Positions 4,750 to 61,428 of a stretch of 64,000 nucleotides of DNA are shown here, piece by piece (the first letter of the stretch is position 1; each line of letters opens with the position of its first letter). Source of the stretch: Octopus vulgaris (taxonomy: Eukaryota); NCBI GenBank assembly GCA_951406725.2, contig OX597830.1, positions 62,372,001 to 62,436,000 of the forward strand, written 5' to 3'. The position numbers and the translations under genes were made by a program. The notes under the pieces are model-generated. The model ran no database searches and was not told the origin of the DNA. It worked only from the letters and a program-made list of their open reading frames with translations.

Positions 4750-5105
4750 ATCTTATACTTGCTTCAGTCATTGGACAGCAGCCCTTCTGAAAGTGCTGGA
4801 ATGAATCGACCCCAGTACGTTTTTAAAACCCGGTACTTAATCTATTGTTCTCTTTTGCCGAATTGCTAAGTTATGGGGACGCAAACACGCCAACACCAGT
4901 TCTCAAGCTGTGGATGGGGGACAAACTCACGCACACACACACACACATGACGAGCTTCTTTTCAGTTTCTGTCGATCAAATCCACACACAAGGCTTTGGT
5001 CAGCCCGAGGCTCTTGTAGAAGACACTTGCCCAAGGTTTCAAGTAGTGGGACTGAACCCGGATCCATGTGGTTGGGAAGCAAGCTTCTTACCATACAGCC
5101 ATGCA
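4750..5105 (-). mobile_element. SINE family A, diverged copy
   Basis: Same head, body and tail motifs as 1609-2018. Confidence 0.85.
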
Positions 5106-5111
5106 TATATA

Positions 5112-5310
5112 ATTCGGGAAACTTTACGAAAATAAACAAAAGACGAAGGCAGGTGGAGTACAAACAAACAAATGTATTAGTATGGCGCTCAGGAATAGAA
5201 ATAGAACAAGTCTTTTACGTTTCGAGCCTACGCTCTTCGACAGAAAGATACACAGAAAAGAAACAAGGAAAGAAAGAACGCGTGTAGGAGCTAACGATCT
5301 ATCATGGCGT
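5112..5310 (-). mobile_element. Family E ~200-bp non-autonomous element with hammerhead-like motif (Penelope-like/retrozyme candidate)
   Basis: Repeated at 8574, 12252 and 56954, variants at 23277 and 44685. Minus strand 5248-5211: TCTTT-CTGTCGA-A-GAGC-GTAG-GCTC-GAAA-CGT-A-AAAGA. Confidence 0.7.
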
Positions 5311-6465: not shown

Positions 6466-6788
6466 GGCGCAGGAGTGGAGGTGTGGTAAGTAGCTTGCTT
6501 ACCAACCACATGGTCCTGGGTTCATTCCCACTGCAAAGCACCTTGGGCAAATGTCTTCTACTATAGCCTCGTGCCTGCCAAAGCCTTGTGAGTGGATTTG
6601 GTTGATGGAAACTGGAAGAAGCCCGTCGTATATGTATGTTATATGTTTGTGTGTCTGTGTTTGTCCCCCCCAACATCGTTTGACAACCGAACCGCTAATG
6701 TTACGTGGACGTAACATTAGCGGTTCGGCAAAAGAGACCGATAGAATAAGTCCTAGGCTTACAAAGAATAAGTCCTGGGGTCGATTTG
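6466..6788 (+). mobile_element. SINE family A, 3'-truncated and joined to a family B copy
   Basis: Head GGCGCAGGAGTGG; stops after CCTGGGGTCGATTTGC. Confidence 0.85.
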
Positions 6789-7012
6789 CGAGCTGGCAGA
6801 AACGTTAGCACGCTGGACGAAATGCGTAGCCCTATTTTGTCAACCGTTACATTCTGAGTTCAAATTCCGCCAAGGTCGACTTTGCCTTTCATCCTTTCGG
6901 GGTCGATAAATTAAGTACCAGTTCCGCACTGGGGTCGATATAATCGACTTAATCCGTTTGTCTGTCTTTGTTTGTCCCCTCCGTGTTTAGCCCCTTGTGG
7001 GTAGTAAAGAAA
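6789..7012 (+). mobile_element. SINE family B, tail type B2
   Basis: GAGCTGGCAGAAACG...GTGTTTAGCCCCTTGTGGGTAGTAAAGAAAT. Confidence 0.9.
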
Positions 7013-7769
7013 TAGGTACTGCTGATTTCCTCTGAGAAATGTGTCCCACGAGGTAGGGTGACTGCTGCAGTGAGTGTCGCAGGGCATTCTCTGCGGCAAT
7101 GCCTTTGCAATTATGTCCCTGGGGCGCAGCTAAACACGCCATTTGCCCAGCGGTGTACGTGTTACTCCATACCCGCCATCTTATGCTGCTGTTTTACTCC
7201 TTTTCATTGTTTCCCTGATGAAGATGTTATGTGGGACGGGACTGGGGGGAGGGTCTCGATAATTTGGTCTTTTGTGTATTTTTTTTTCTCTAGTTTCAGC
7301 TCAGAGCTGCGGCCATGCTGATGCACCGCCGTTTAATGTTTTTTTTTCTTTCTTTTCTTCCTGCAAAAAAAAAAGCTGAGAAAACAAAGTATTTATTAAT
7401 TGCTTCGACAAATCTTCCTTCAAAGCATCCTTGATGTGAATGTTATCATTAATAGAAGAGCAGCTTGTTGATTAACGTAAACGTGATGGAGTTACAATAG
7501 CAGAGGCTGCGGGTCATTCTGAGAGTGAATGGAATTATTAGAGAAGACTTCGTGGATTAAATTAGCTGTAAATATGTTGTAATAGATTCTATGCATCAAC
7601 TCAGATGTGGCGTAAATGTAACAGACCTTTATGGATCATCCTTGATGTGAAAGAAATTATAATAGAAGACCTTTTCGATCAATCTGGATTTGAGCTTTGC
7701 TCAGGTTTTAGGTTTTACTATTCACACACACACACTCACACACACACACGTGCACGCACGTAACAATGC

Positions 7770-8573: not shown

Positions 8574-8695
8574 AGAGCGTAGGCTCGAAACGTAAAAGAC
8601 TTGTTTTATTTCTATTCCTGAGCGCCATACTAATACAATTGTTTGTTTGTACTCCACCTGCATTCGTCTTTTGTTTATTTTCGTAAACCTTCCCG

Positions 8696-8697
<2 letters not shown>
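8574..8697 (+). mobile_element. Family E element, truncated inside the hammerhead-like motif
   Basis: Starts at AGAGCGTAGGCTCGAAACGTAAAAGAC, ends CCCGT followed by (TA)n. Confidence 0.8.
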
Positions 8698-9473: not shown

Positions 9474-9668
9474 CGTGTGTACCGTTGGCGATTTTTTCCC
9501 CTCTGTCTTCCCTTCTCTGGATCTTTCCTTCTCCTATGTTTCCGACGAAGAGCTCCACTCGAAACGTTAAACCCTCCTTCTTCCCTTCTTTCCTGAGCGT
9601 CCAATAATACTCTATTTGTTCTACGTCCTCGCGTTGTTGTGTTTTTTTGTGCTTTCTTGTTTGGATTA

Positions 9669-9673
<5 letters not shown>
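9474..9673 (+). mobile_element. Family F ~200-bp element with hammerhead-like motif, between (TA)n tracts
   Basis: Copies at 15826 and 42715. Motif 9538-9572 GTTT-CCGACGA-A-GAGC-TCC-ACTC-GAAA-CGT-T-AAAC. Confidence 0.7.
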
Positions 9674-12251: not shown

Positions 12252-12456
12252 ACGCCATGATAGATCGTTAGCTCCTACACGCATTTTTTTCTCTCTTTGT
12301 TTCTCTCCTTGTTTTTTCTGTGTATCTTTCTGTCGAAGAGCGTAGGCTCGAAACGTAAAAGACTTTTTTCTATTCCTGAGCGCCATACTAATACATTTGT
12401 TTGTTTGTACTCCACCTGCCTTCGCCTTTTGTTTATTTTCGTAAACTTTCCCGTTA
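12252..12456 (+). mobile_element. Family E element, full length, with hammerhead-like motif
   Basis: Motif 12325-12362 TCTTT-CTGTCGA-A-GAGC-GTAG-GCTC-GAAA-CGT-A-AAAGA; 3' end abuts (TA)n. Confidence 0.75.
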
Positions 12457-12544: not shown

Positions 12545-12682
12545 GTCTATGTGCGGTTGTATGTATGCATGTGTGTATGTGTGCTTAAGTGTATGTATGT
12601 ATATGTGTGCATGTATGTGTATAACTCTGTGTGTATTAGAAAGACGGAAAGAAACATATATATAACATACAGGAGAATTACC

Positions 12683-12917
12683 TATTTCTTTACTACCCAC
12701 AAGGGGCTAAACACAGAGAGGACAAACAAGGACAGACAAAGGGATTAAGTCGATTACATCGACCCCAGTGCGTAACTGGTACTTAATTTATCGACCCCGA
12801 AAGGATGAAAGGCAAAGTCGACCTCGGCGGAATTTGAACTCACAACGTAGCGGCAGACGAAATGCCGCTTAGCATTTCGCCCGACGTGCTAACGTTTCTG
12901 CCAGCTCGTCGCCTTAT
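12683..12917 (-). mobile_element. SINE family B (B2 tail), full length
   Basis: Perfect 18-bp TSD ACATACAGGAGAATTACC at 12665-12682 and 12918-12935. Confidence 0.93.
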
Positions 12918-13619: not shown

Positions 13620-14612
13620 TTGACACAAAGCTAGCAGTTTTTATGGCGGGAGTAAGTCGATTACATTGACTCCAACGCTTTTCTGGCACTTTATTTTATC
13701 GACCCCGAAAGAGTGAAAGGCAAAGTCGATATCGGTAAAATTTGAACTCTCAACGTAATGAACGTATGATAACAATATTGGTTTCACATTTTGGCACACG
13801 GCCAGCGTTGTTGAGGGGAGGGGAATGTTGATTTCATCGACCCTAGTACTCAACTGGTATTTATTTTATCGACCCCTAAAGAATGAAAGACAAAGTCGAT
13901 CTCGGCAGAGTTTGAACTCAGAATGTAAAGAAAGATGAAATGCCGCTAAGCGTTTTCCCCCCAGAGTGTTAACGATTCTGCCAGCTCGCCACCCGCTTCC
14001 AGTAACATTGGATCGTTATATTATATTTCTGCTCTCTAAGGCGTTGAGCTGGCAGAAACGTTAGCACGCCGGACGAAATGCTTTGCAGTATTTCGTCTGC
14101 CGTTACGTTCTGAGTTCAAATTCTGCCGAGGTCGACTTTGCCTTTCATCCTTTCGGGGTCGATTAAATAAGTACCAGTTACACACTGGGGTCGATATAAT
14201 CGACTTAATCCCTTTGTCTGTCCTTGCTCGTCCCCCCTGTGTTTAGCCCCTTGTGGGTAGTAAAGAAATAAGAAACATTAGCACGCCGGGCGAGATGCTT
14301 AGCAGTATTTCGTCTGTCTTTACATTCTGAGTTCGACTTTGCCTTTCATCCTTTTGGGGTCGATAAATTAAGTACCAGTTGTGTACTGGGATCGATCTAA
14401 TCGTTTGGCCCCCTCCCCCAAAAATTCGGACCTTGTGCCTAGAATAGAAAAGATGATATTACAAACGCGTTCAATAAGGAGAACCGATTGGGCGTTAGAC
14501 AAAATGACCCCGGCCTTTTACATTCGTAGTTCAAATCCTCTCGAAGTCACCTTTACCTTTACTCTTGTGGGCTCGATAAAATAAAGTACCAGTCATGTGT
14601 AGAAGTCGATAT
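13620..14612. mobile_element. Cluster of five family B SINEs (two minus; B2+B1 tandem plus; one degenerate plus)
   Basis: Repeated GTCGATAAA/AAGTACCAG/GAGTTCAAA motifs; junction AAAGAAATAAGAAACATTAGC at ~14270. Confidence 0.85.
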
Positions 14613-15825: not shown

Positions 15826-16027
15826 CGTGTGTACCGTTGGCGATTTTTTTCCTCCGTCTTCCCTTCCTTGGATCCTTCCTTTTTCTATGTTTCTGACGAA
15901 GAGCTCCGCTCGAAACGTTAAATCCTCTTTCTTTCTTTCCTTTCCTGAGCGTCCAATAACACTATACTTGTTCCACGTCCTCGGGTTGTTGTGTTTTCTC
16001 TTTGTGTTTTCATGTTTGGATTAACTA
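15826..16027 (+). mobile_element. Family F element with canonical-core hammerhead-like motif
   Basis: 15889-15923 GTTT-CTGACGA-A-GAGC-TCC-GCTC-GAAA-CGT-T-AAAT. Confidence 0.72.
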
Positions 16028-16060
16028 TATATATACATGTGTGTGTGTGTGGGGGGTGTA

Positions 16061-16436: not shown

Positions 16437-16449
16437 TATATATATATAT

Positions 16450-16669
16450 GAGCTGGCAGAAACGTTAGCACGCCGGGCGAAATGCGTAGCTTGATTTCGT
16501 CTGTCGTTACGTTCCGAGTTCAAATTCCACCGCGGTCGACTTTGCCTTTCATCTTTTCGGGGTCGATAAATTAAGTACCAGTTACACACTGGGGTCGATG
16601 TAATCAACTTAATCCGTTTGTCTGTCTTTGTTTGTCCCCTCTGTGTTTAGCCCCTTGTGGGTAGTAAAG

Positions 16670-16673
<4 letters not shown>
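16450..16673 (+). mobile_element. SINE family B (B2 tail)
   Basis: Family motifs; flanked by (TA)n. Confidence 0.9.
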
Positions 16674-16717
<44 letters not shown>

Positions 16718-23276: not shown

Positions 23277-23426
23277 GTGTGTATAAACAACAAACAGGTG
23301 TATTAGTTTAACGCTTGGGAAAGTGAGAAAGTCCTTTACATTTCGAGCCTACGCTCTTCAACAGAAAGGAACACGAGAAAATAAACAGACAGAATATAAA
23401 AGGTTTAGTCGCTAGCGATCGATCAT
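23277..23426 (-). mobile_element. Family E variant with hammerhead-like motif
   Basis: Minus strand CCTTT-CTGTTGA-A-GAGC-GTAG-GCTC-GAAA-TGT-A-AAGG. Confidence 0.6.
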
Positions 23427-42714: not shown

Positions 42715-42886
42715 GTCTCCTCTATCTTCCCTTCTCCTTGTTTCCGACGAAGAGCTCCGCTCGAAACGTTAAACCCTCCTTCCCTTCTTTCCTGAGCGTC
42801 AATAATACTTTAATTGTTCCACGTCCCGCGTTGCTGTGTTTTTTTCTCTCTTTTTTCTCTTTTTTTCTGTGTTTTCTTGTTTGGAT

Positions 42887-42892
<6 letters not shown>
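42715..42892 (+). mobile_element. Family F element with hammerhead-like motif
   Basis: 42740-42774 GTTT-CCGACGA-A-GAGC-TCC-GCTC-GAAA-CGT-T-AAAC; ends TGGATTAAC followed by (TA)n. Confidence 0.7.
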
Positions 42893-43202: not shown

Positions 43203-43618
43203 CAGCGAGCTGGCAGAAACATTAGCACGCCGGGTGAAATGCTTAGCGGTATTTTGTCTGCCGTTACGTTCTGAGTTCAAATTCCACCAAGGTCAACTTT
43301 GCCTTTCATCCTTTCGGGGTCGATAAATTAAGTACCAGTTACGCACTGGGGTCGATATAATCGATTTAATACCTATGTCTTTCCTTGTTTGTCCTCTCTG
43401 TGTTTAGCCCCTTGTGGGTAATAAAGAAATAGGTATTTCATCTGCTGCTACATTCTGAGTTCAAATTCCACCAAGGTCAACTTTGCCTTTCATCCTTTCG
43501 GGGTTGATTAAATAAGTACCAGTTACACACTGGGGGTTGATATAATCGACTTAATCCGTTTGTCAGTCCTTATTTGTCCCCTCTGTGTGTAGCCCCTTGT
43601 GGGCAGTAAAGAAATAAG
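43203..43618 (+). mobile_element. Tandem dimer of SINE B2
   Basis: Junction AAAGAAATAGGTATTTCATCTG at ~43430. Confidence 0.88.
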
Positions 43619-44684: not shown

Positions 44685-44875
44685 CGTGAGAATTTACAAA
44701 AAAACAAAAGTTGAAGATGGGTGTATAAACAACAAACAGATGTGTTAGTTTAACACTTGGGAAGTGGTGAGAAAGTATTTTACGTTTCGAGCCTATGCTC
44801 TTCGACAGAAAGGAACACAGAAATAAGGGAGAGAAAACAGAAAAAGGTTTTGTGGCTAGCGATCTGTCATGGTGA
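44685..44875 (-). mobile_element. Family E variant with hammerhead-like motif
   Basis: TTTTACGTTTCGAGCCTATGCTCTTCGACAGAAAG on the plus strand. Confidence 0.65.
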
Positions 44876-48438: not shown

Positions 48439-49030
48439 TTATTTCTTTATTACCCACAAGGGGGCTAAACATAAAGGGGACAAACAAAGACAGACAAAGG
48501 GATTAAGTCGATTATATCGACCCCAGTGCGTAACTGGTACTTATTTAATCGACTCCGAAAGGATGAAAGACAAATTCGACCTCGGCGGAATTTGCACTCA
48601 GAACGTAACGGCAGACTAAATACCTCTTTCTTTACTACCCACAAGGGGCTAAACACAGAGAGGACAGACAAGGACAGACAAACGGATTAAGTCGATTACA
48701 TCGACCCCTGTGCGTAACTGGTACTTAATTTATCGACCCTGAAAGGATGAAAGACAAATTCGACCTCGGCGGAATTTGCACTCAGAACGTAACGGCAGAC
48801 TAAATACCTCTTTCTTTACTACCCACAAGGGGCTAAACAAGAGGACAAACAAGGACAGACAAACGGATTAAGTCGATTATATCGACCCCAGTGCGTAACT
48901 GGTACTTATTTAATCGACTCCGAAAGGATGAAAGACAAATTCGACCACGGCGGAATTTGAACTCAGAACGTTGCGGCAGACGAAAATATTGCAAAGCATT
49001 TCGCCCGGCGTTTCTGCCAGCTCACCGCCC
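48439..49030 (-). mobile_element. Tandem trimer of SINE B2
   Basis: Three ~185-220-bp units; identical junctions GGCAGACTAAATACCTCTTTCTTTACTACCC at ~48620 and ~48805. Confidence 0.9.
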
Positions 49031-53527: not shown

Positions 53528-53956
53528 TCTGGCAGAAACGTTAGCACGCCGGGCGAAATGCGTAGCCGTATTTCGTCCGCCGTTACGTTCTGAGTTCAAA
53601 TTCCGCCGAGGTCGACTTTAGCTTTCATCCTTTCGGGGTCGACAAATTAAGTACCAGTTACACACTGGGGTCGATGTAATCGACTTAATCCCTTTGTCTG
53701 TCCCTTCTATGTTTAGCCCCTTGTGGGCAGTAAAGAAATAAGAAACGTTAGCACGCTGGGTGAAATGTTTAGCAGTATTTCGCCCGTCGCTACGTTGTGA
53801 GTTCAAATTCCGCCGAGGTCGACTTTGCCTTTCATCCTTTCGGGGTCGATAAATTAAGTACCAGTTACGCACTGGGGTCGATGTAATCGGCTTAATACCT
53901 ATGTCTGTCCTTGTTTGTCCCTTCTATGTGTAGCCCCTTGTGGGCAGTAAAGAAAT
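53528..53956 (+). mobile_element. Tandem dimer of SINE B2 within one TSD
   Basis: AGGTATTCTG at 53522-53531 and 53957-53966; internal junction AAAGAAATAAGAAACGTTAGC. Confidence 0.88.
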
Positions 53957-54931
53957 AGGTATTCTGAAATGTGTCTATGTAAGAGTGTGTTTATGTGGTG
54001 TCCTGTACGTGTTTCTATCTGTAATTGTGTGCATGTGTGGGTGTTTAAAAAAGATTAGGGGGAAGATCCTTTGGTATGTACGTAATTCCTGTGCCCCCCC
54101 CCCCCCCGAAAGCCTTAGAGTAGAAAATAAATGCCATAGGAGATCAGGTTTTATGTATGTGTGGTTGTATACGTGTTGGTAGTTGTATGGCTGTGTGTGT
54201 GTGTGTGGTTGTATAGTTTGTGCGTTGTATATGCATGTGTATTTCTATATGTATGCGTAGTTGCATGTGGTTGTGTATGTGTGAATATGGTTGCAAGGCT
54301 ATGTGTGTGTGTGTGTAGTTGGGGACAAGGAGGTTTTATAATACAATAGAAGTGACGTTAATCTTAGGAGTCGTAGTAGTAGTGGTGGTGGTGGTGGTAT
54401 CAGCAGAGGCAACAGCAGCCGCAGTAGTAGCAGTGGTTCCTGTGGAATGTTTGTGTTCCCTCTTAAGTATGTCACCCTAATTCCTCTCCCCCTCCTCCTA
54501 TACAAATATTAATATTATTATTATTATTATTATTACCCTGTGGCCAGTGTCGCTGCCGCCGCCGCCTCCACCAACACCCTTAGCTTTCCAACTGGAATGT
54601 TCTAAGGGCAATAATATCAAGCAGTGTACAAGTGAAAGGGGGAAAATGTGTGTGTGTGTGTGTGTATATGTGTGTCACTATGGTTATGTGTCACTGTGTG
54701 TGTGGACGGCGGTGCCCTGCCATTCTTTTGCACCGAGAGGAATTCGTTCCCATTTATTTAACAAATTCCTTTCTCCAACCATTTTCTTACTCCCTACACC
54801 ATTCTCTCTCTCCTTTTATTTCCCCACTTTTCTATCTTCTCACTCTCGTGCTCTCTTTTTCTCTCCTTATCTCTATCTCTCCCTACATTTATCCATCCAC
54901 CCATCTATCTATCTATCTATCTATCTATCTC

Positions 54932-56953: not shown

Positions 56954-57110
56954 ATAACGGGAAGGTTTACGAAAATAAACAAAAGACGAAGGCAGGTGGA
57001 GTACAATTGTATTAGTATGGCACTCAGGAATAGAAATAAAACAAGTCTTTTACGTTTCGAGCCTACGCTCTTCGACAGAAAGATACACAGAAAAGAAACA
57101 AGGAGAGAAA
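56954..57110 (-). mobile_element. Family E element with hammerhead-like motif
   Basis: GTCTTTTACGTTTCGAGCCTACGCTCTTCGACAGAAAGA on the plus strand; adjacent (TA)n. Confidence 0.72.
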
Positions 57111-61314: not shown

Positions 61315-61428
61315 ACAGTTCTATATTCTGATGAAGGCTGGAGGGTATATCAGCCGAAACGTTGTGTTAACAACAAATAAGATGAGGACAAATATCCGTC
61401 AATTGTAAATAATGTAAATAATGTATAT
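61315..61428 (+). mobile_element. Penelope-like terminal fragment with canonical hammerhead core
   Basis: CTGATGA (61328-34), A, GGCTG, 10-nt loop, CAGCC, GAAA, CGTT (to 61363); tail GTAAATAATGTAAATAATGTA. Confidence 0.65.

Follow-up and report, generated by a model that had tools for sequence, protein, structure and literature searches.

Minimal hammerhead motifs are already known from the ends of Penelope-like elements (PLEs), as is a natural hammerhead carrying A6C in its core. In the metazoan survey of Cervera and de la Pena (2014, PMC4209133), canonical minimal PLE hammerheads were inactive as monomers and weak as dimers in vitro. The search descriptor of that survey demanded A6, the sole core variant in the portion of it used here was U3-A8, and no cephalopod appears among the 44 rows examined of the 56 in its alignment. 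Insertion of EN+ PLEs proceeds by target-primed reverse transcription. In Anolis, cutting by the PLE hammerhead requires the element's protein; ribozyme-dead Anolis RNA inserts normally in vitro, and no RNA ends at the cut were found (PMC11167929). The PLE hammerhead poses a puzzle: it is found in nearly all of these elements, but its activity in vitro is weak and the sole reconstituted system inserts without it. As to the core itself, a full pairwise scan of a type III hammerhead found that changes in CUGA strongly cut activity and that second changes give no rescue, single and double CUGA mutants being low in activity except for the C3-G8 swap (PMC9901934). The natural A6C hammerhead has low activity in Mg2+ (PMC3088659) and good activity in Mn2+ (PMC7151607). 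For a viroid, U4C is enough to sustain infectivity (PMC3088659). A recent octopus repeat annotation describes active Penelope families, with ribozymes absent from its main text (PMC13282606). Literature searches yielded neither a retroelement in which A6U is fixed nor a description of PLE hammerheads in octopus, although supplements, Repbase and subscription papers may hold one.

The window analyzed here is a 64,000-nt stretch of Octopus vulgaris DNA, in which a preliminary description had noted six copies of a (TA)n-anchored family with a non-canonical hammerhead-like fold, referred to as family E. All six were recovered in place by blastn and nhmmer, and their features are as follows (positions counted from the first letter of the window).
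5114..5310, minus strand: family E copy, the 5'-truncated 3' end (pseudo-LTR) of a probably Neptune-type Penelope-like element (the 5112 copy)
5211..5248, minus strand: minimal type-I hammerhead motif within this copy, core CUGUCGA, U6 at 5240
5104..5113, no strand: short TA run at the 3' junction of this copy (target site), from sequence
8574..8697, plus strand: E copy truncated inside stem II, lacking the core, followed by (TA)37 (blastn, nhmmer)
12252..12455, plus strand: E copy, core CTGTCGA at 12330 (blastn, nhmmer)
23277..23426, minus strand: copy of an older E subfamily, core CTGTTGA at 23364, ATGT palindrome, lacking the 3' end
44685..44872, minus strand: copy of an older E subfamily, core CTGTCGA at 44808, stem I mismatch
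56954..57110, minus strand: E copy, core CTGTCGA at 57078

The motif of the 5112 copy has the anatomy originally proposed, and the strand is corrected to minus. Stem I pairs TCTTT (5248-5244) with AAAGA (5215-5211), the core occupies 5243-5237, and an extra A at 5236 precedes stem II (5235-5232 with 5227-5224), which is also present in the consensus fold. GAAA (5223-5220), the palindromic ACGT (ACGU) stem III (5220-5217) and a GUA triplet with its last base at 5216 complete the motif, and hammerhead numbering places the predicted cut between 5216 and 5215. The extra nucleotide 9.1, G10.1-C11.1, the palindromic 15.2-16.2, an NUH site and stems I and II, which characterize minimal PLE hammerheads, are all present; the canonical core CUGANGA is replaced in E through U6. 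The string CTGTYGA-A-GAGC-GTAG-GCTC-GAAA is kept in five of the six window copies, with a chance expectation from base composition of 5e-7, and U6 occurs, as had been reported, in all five that retain the core (CTGTYGA in 5/5). Two parts of the initial account require adjustment. The complete motif holds for the 5112 copy but not for the copy at 23277, which has ATGT instead of ACGT, or for that at 44685, with its stem I mismatch. Anchoring in (TA)n is likewise uneven: TA follows the same 3' end in most E copies, but the 5112 copy is followed by a few TA units only and the copy at 23277 has (TA)n on its 5' side only. The window also contains a multi-copy SINE-like family of ~230 nt (6788-7018, 12676-12914, 14044-14274, 16448-16678, 43205-43435, 48442-48985 and 53534-53957), in places arranged as tandem 184-225-nt units, which we take to resemble octopus SINEs.

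Searches of the genome (2.8 Gb in 227 contigs) revealed the parent element. Relatives of the 5112 copy share a single 3' end followed by (TA)n, and their 5' ends are scattered. All six window copies, like most genomic ones, are only ~120-200 nt long, and longer copies run upstream through a pyrimidine-rich 3' UTR into GIY-YIG endonuclease (EN) and then reverse transcriptase (RT) coding sequence, which supplies the flanking PLE RT/GIY-YIG reading frames for which a search had been suggested. Genomic copies 88-95% identical to the 5112 copy include three that reach into EN/RT (L013, L014 and L027), and the 5112 copy matches the 3' end of an intact element (L131) at 83% identity over 218 nt. A full-length decayed copy (L063; RVT_1, E 2.9e-7) served as RT query and yielded 136 scored matches, of 91-100% identity, from 15,915 candidates. 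The 20 copies with the longest open frames among these matches were fetched (L127-L146), a set skewed to young copies because it was chosen in this way. Uninterrupted ORFs of 956-964 aa with DKG, YIDD, a CX4CxxC linker and the GIY-YIG motif occur in 16 of the 20; one further copy has altered motifs, and three carry a frameshift after residue 49. The median pairwise identity of the proteins is 99%, the three frameshifted ones being compared over 49 residues only. Direct repeats (pseudo-LTRs) of 340-1,580 nt, 96-99.8% identical and each with a hammerhead, flank 14 of the 20, and in none of the 20 was E sequence seen to be absent from the pseudo-LTRs. The unit measures 4,478 nt and encodes a single 964-aa ORF whose ATG lies 741 nt after C3 of the core, and copies all stop at one 3' end, 103 nt past the predicted cut. 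Copying went beyond one unit in 15 of the 20, which reach 211-1,405 nt upstream of the 5' core; a circular template, a tandem template and a template jump are all compatible with this.

In Pfam searches the intact ORF scored above the cut-off for RVT_1 (1.1e-7) and below it for GIY-YIG (E 0.005), and its Atlas neighbors at 0.97 are clusters with HTH_animal, RVT_1 and GIY-YIG. Its linker reads CSRPRCRTC, and CISCSLC provides a CxxC within the nuclease; the CX4CxxC linker recurs in 102 of 105 homologues that have the nuclease motif. A PLE-type RT and C-terminal GIY-YIG in one ORF, pseudo-LTRs and a fixed 3' end with variable 5' truncation are the features of EN+ PLEs. The linker (CX2-5CxxC), the CxxC in the nuclease and the (TA)n target are those of Neptune, the linker also occurring in Nematis, so that the element probably belongs to the Neptune clade, a label resting on motifs and target, since the 120 homologues listed bear no clade names. 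It is not a Naiad, which has GIY-YIG before the RT and DKA, since here EN is C-terminal and the motif is DKG. Given that long copies contain EN and RT and that the end is shared with intact elements, family E represents the 3' terminus left by 5'-truncated insertions of an autonomous Penelope-like element that sits in (TA)n, and the link to PLE termini suggested at the outset stands.

Several further observations concern the element and its surroundings. In the upstream repeat of L131 and other young elements, the element's sequence continues past the copy end with TATATATT; this resembles the (TA)n target and could allow primer-template pairing with it, unlike in Anolis PAc. The ORF lacks a fixed stop after the nuclease (L127-L146) and enters a pyrimidine-rich tract of variable length, so that even nearly identical copies have different C-termini. 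In L022, L087/L088, L203, L250, L261 and L302, truncated ends lie in inverted orientation to each other at a distance of a few hundred bases, an arrangement described for PLE insertions. Three kilobases upstream of the PLE in L063, an Asn-rich open frame of a different element (L063:1767-2837) ends in a GIY-YIG-like segment (FYIG) and gave no Pfam match at E 0.1. Contigs of four sequencing runs, guessed to be RNA, cover the element, carrying no information on ends, strand or level. At L131:6641, a contig end of run X4 carries letters resembling a cDNA-kit primer, which hints that the run derives from RNA and spans the start of the ORF.

To gauge how far the core variant extends, exact matches to the pattern CTGNNGAAGAGC-N3-7-GCTCGAAAC were counted genome-wide. 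There were 28,595, and a reversed control gave 0. Position 6 was T in 21,780 and A in 6,025, leaving 790 with C or G by subtraction; such motif counts are lower bounds, because decayed copies escape exact patterns. Among the first 100 of the 6,025 canonical A6 matches listed, most have the loop types of sister families, and in motifs with the E loop A6 occurs 92 times and C or G 299 times, as expected from mutation after insertion. Cores of the form CCGANGA (U4C), the change fixed in sister family F, gave a further 9,959 exact matches. They outnumber the canonical cores of the group, which thus constitute 6,025 of 38,554 (16%). Searches that require CUGANGA would therefore miss about 84% of these motifs.

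The variant is uniform in young elements and nearly so in a sample drawn independently of the motif. Among the 20 young elements, each of the 34 sense motifs has the core CTGTTGA and U17. In 964 kb fetched irrespective of the motif, 50 profile hits were obtained, of which 39 were long enough to align and 24 belonged to E; 23 of these have U6, one has G6 and none has A6. A profile built without the hammerhead (47 hits) found no E subfamily that had lost the motif. For four runs with other organism codes, no alternative base is listed at position 6, nor is the variable N7 listed, which leaves this result with little weight. The oldest E subfamily, 7-9% diverged from its consensus, has T 81, C 11, A 7 and G 1 at position 6 among the first 100 of its 892 matches listed, and may include a small ancestral A6 group. 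A6U is thus lineage-wide in the E element, and the family-level variant proposed in the preliminary description is borne out by the genomic matches, the young motifs and the motif-blind sample alike. U6 is the derived state, because A6 is found in families F and G (described below) and in the 44 published rows (of 56). Two other accounts were tried and rejected. A surviving canonical-core branch within E does not fit, as A6 is rarer than C/G6 with the E loop and A6 copies scatter among U6 copies once position 6 is masked. An alternative register, in which the U is an insertion and a later A serves as A6, would destroy G8 or stem II.

Selective constraint since the A6U change was assessed on a tree of 194 E ends and 161 columns, built after 87 of 353 hits had been dropped as too short or duplicate, with changes counted on branches leading to at least 8 copies. 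The 32 motif columns comprised stem I, core, stem II and GAAACGU, and N7, H17 and loop II were set aside. No motif column changed, compared with 46 of 92 flank columns (Fisher p 2e-8). The upstream flank is of low complexity; with the downstream flank only, the comparison was 0/32 against 29/72 (p 3e-6). Many copies in the tree had been found through motif patterns, and unbiased copies alone gave 0/32 motif and 33/98 flank columns changed (p 3e-5). The motif is accordingly conserved above its flanks, as had been anticipated. Seven changes, taking in all four bases, fell on N7; H17 switched between A and U three times and never became fixed as G. When positions 3-9 were left free, base counts made by hand on the first 100 of 18,464 matches listed were C3 99, U4 96, G5 97, U6 95, G8 97 and A9 100, with N7 split into 44 T, 25 A, 19 C and 12 G. 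Stem I pairs 1-4 are formed in 167-190 of the 194 copies. Loop II is also invariant, and further invariant blocks lie downstream of the motif, neither of which is explained by catalysis. Residual catalysis, unlike a mere hairpin signal, predicts that G5, G8, A9, G12-A14 and a non-G base at 17 should be retained while N7 varies; the pattern modestly favors a variant ribozyme over a dead fold.

Traces of cutting were sought in the 5' ends of truncated copies. A pattern for copies without an intact motif just upstream gave 79 matches, of which 29 were set aside because the motif continued past a small indel or deletion; the other 50 were fetched, 36 proving to be true truncations. Seven of these 36 begin exactly at the predicted cut, against 2.5 expected from uniform breaks and the real flanks (p 0.011). 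Two other positions hold 7 and 6 of the 36 (p ~0.05 each), microhomology with TA blurs junctions by one base, and seven copies are a tiny share of the subfamily, so the excess may be read as weak support at most for fossil evidence of cutting. The same data show that cut RNA rarely serves as template. At gathering score, Rfam hammerhead families gave no match in L131, L074 or L300, the canonical-core copy included, and none among the 150 listed of 329 matches in the window, where those listed are microsatellite artefacts; minimal motifs evidently escape the Rfam hammerhead models. With RNAalifold, stem II was the sole stem recovered and no covariation emerged, because MAFFT had split the fourth stem I pair over different columns, and stem I pairs were then counted by anchoring on the core. 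In minimum-free-energy folds of the monomer and of two copies, the active hammerhead or dimer was not the lowest-energy state, a result that says nothing about a tertiary fold.

Sister families share much of this architecture. Three window copies of family F had been overlooked in the preliminary description:
9474..9673, plus strand: family F copy, core CCGACGA (U4C) at 9542
15826..16030, plus strand: family F copy, canonical core CTGACGA at 15893
42725..42890, plus strand: family F copy, core CCGACGA (U4C) at 42744
These copies have stem II, GAAACGT and a downstream box in common with E, and GAAACGU and the first three stem I pairs are common to all families. With the core as anchor, pair 2.4-1.4 was counted as C-G in E, whereas F and G have G-C or G-U there. 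No link to an ORF was found among the F copies in the fetched loci. E, F and G also share a CCYGAGCG box roughly 25 nt beyond the cut, in the 5186-5195 region of the window and at equivalent sites elsewhere; through its complementarity to G12 and the 3' strand of stem II, an alternative, non-cutting fold could form. Further strings that look like hammerheads, in which the core is canonical but the stems differ, are present at window position 61328 (plus strand) and in L019. A distant PLE with 28% identity to the E protein lies ~20-30 kb left of the window (L182:2278-1403, minus strand), followed after 485 nt by a canonical-core motif with a different loop II.

Taken as a whole, the sequence evidence leads us to favor, with a probability of roughly 0.55, the view that the U6 hammerhead likely still cuts, but slowly and only as a dimer or with the help of the element's protein. 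The element's GIY-YIG nuclease would nick the (TA)n target, and the nicked strand would prime reverse transcription at an internal RNA site followed by the element's own UAUAUA. Most reverse transcription would stop early, leaving E-sized pieces, and some would pass one unit and rebuild the upstream pseudo-LTR. Since copying starts 103 nt downstream of the cut, ORF-bearing copies would need RNA uncut at the 3' motif, or rejoined. Every copy that spans the motif would have to derive from such RNA, and fast cutting would therefore cost templates, so that a weakened core could be tolerated or favored. A slow core would impose little cost and may help, and two pseudo-LTR motifs paired through ACGU might occasionally cut to give unit-length, possibly circular, RNA. 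Counting against cutting are the fixed U4C in the sister family, which suggests relaxed demands on the core, and the E stem I, with only 4-5 weak pairs. More tentatively, and at odds well short of even, the motif may be a working protein-switched ribozyme in which the Penelope protein or a paired second pseudo-LTR replaces the contacts of A6. If this were true, the uridine turn would have been freed from its textbook constraint (U6 in one lineage, C4 in a sister) with the catalytic guanines fixed, and cutting would be timed to the transposition complex, yielding a template that is circular or of unit length. CUGANGA searches would then overlook most Penelope hammerheads of this genome and perhaps many in others.

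The principal competing interpretation is that the U6 motif does not cut and is kept as a signal, either a site for PLE-protein binding or dimerisation that positions reverse transcription or a DNA promoter element of the pseudo-LTR. We regard this as possible, though doubtful. CUGA mutants are near-dead in vitro (PMC9901934), insertion in vitro dispenses with cutting (PMC11167929), Naiads spread without canonical motifs (PMC8557442), loop II and the downstream boxes are as invariant as the core, and two sister lineages fixed different changes in the U-turn, both outnumbering the canonical form. Against this, the only positions that moved, N7 and H17 (never to G), are those left free by catalysis, the weak 5'-end excess falls at the cut, and G5, G8, A9, G12, A13 and A14, none of which a plain hairpin needs, never moved. 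The same immobility bears on neutral decay, in which the ribozyme was lost with A6U and the remainder has merely not yet drifted. A small number of source lineages would allow a slightly harmful change to fix, and the U4C family would be a second such change; however, 40-50% of flanking columns have changed since U6 became fixed and 0/32 motif columns have, and the oldest U6 subfamily, at 7-9% divergence, is already mostly U6 (81 of the first 100 listed). Decay is thereby largely refuted and now appears improbable.

Rescue in trans, with the U6 transcript acting as substrate strand for the canonical-core motif of a sister family through the ACGU palindrome and U3/A3 of stem I, would draw on the shared GAAACGU, the three common stem I pairs and the 6,025 canonical matches in the same genome. 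The swap of pair 2.4-1.4 between families would leave just three A-U pairs, and conservation of G5, G8 and G12 on the U6 family's own enzyme strand would go unexplained, making this route very improbable. The preliminary description had instead treated E as an ORF-less, PLE-derived element, that is, a separate short non-autonomous family, SINE- or retrozyme-like, mobilised by a PLE. The brevity of the window copies and of most genomic ones would agree with such a family, but their 5' ends are scattered, longer copies grade continuously into the 3' UTR, EN and RT, intact elements with an ORF carry the same fixed 3' end, and no tandem E arrays were seen in the window or the fetched loci. E occurs as solo ends or as pseudo-LTR pairs 4.5 kb apart around an ORF, which is not the organization of non-LTR retrozymes. 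For the subfamily of the window, this idea is refuted by L061-L063 and is scarcely credible overall; a non-autonomous sub-branch may exist among older E subfamilies, although copies of an old subfamily (L222, L224, L227, L228 and L231) also extend into EN.

A slow, dependent ribozyme therefore remains our preferred interpretation of U6. A recently amplified element with an intact ORF has carried a change at an 'invariant' base through its whole sampled history and kept the remainder of the motif. This implies either a core more tolerant than in vitro scans indicate or a fold retained for a non-cutting role. The coexistence in one genome of U6, U4C and canonical sister families, together with an intact protein, provides a natural three-way comparison.

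Among described systems, the minimal hammerheads of metazoan PLEs (PMC4209133) are similar to E in lying in both pseudo-LTRs, sense to the ORF, and in having an extra base between 9 and 10.1, G10.1-C11.1 and a palindromic 15.2-16.2 with no loop 3. A short stem I, a U-rich 5' flank, common U17 and thousands of solo copies from truncated elements are further likenesses (PMC4209133). E differs in its lineage-wide U6, against A6 in 44/44 rows examined (of 56). At the protein level, E resembles the EN+ PLEs Neptune and Nematis, with a single ORF in which RT is followed by C-terminal GIY-YIG, DKG, the linker, a CxxC inside the nuclease, pseudo-LTRs and (TA)n targets; unlike in the description of those elements, its ORF enters a variable pyrimidine tract without a fixed stop (PMC8557442). 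Animal non-LTR retrozymes (bioRxiv 10.64898/2026.07.22.740005) likewise have a type-I hammerhead of PLE pseudo-LTR origin, but they are short non-coding tandem units, whereas E is the truncated end of a coding element in which no tandem arrays were seen. The phage Bcep176 hammerhead shares a natural pyrimidine at core position 6 (PMC3088659; PMC7151607); it is A6C at one phage locus in a full-size ribozyme, whereas E has U6 in a minimal dimer-type motif of more than 20,000 copies, known from sequence. Finally, the Anolis Poseidon element PAc (Frangieh et al. 2024, PMC11167929) shares with E an AT-rich target, a motif upstream of or at the ORF start, and reverse transcription that starts inside the RNA, downstream of the hammerhead. 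In PAc the canonical core overlaps the start codon and the start site lacks target homology, whereas in E the core has U6, 741 nt separate it from the ATG downstream, and the TATATA that comes after the copy end in the unit matches the target.
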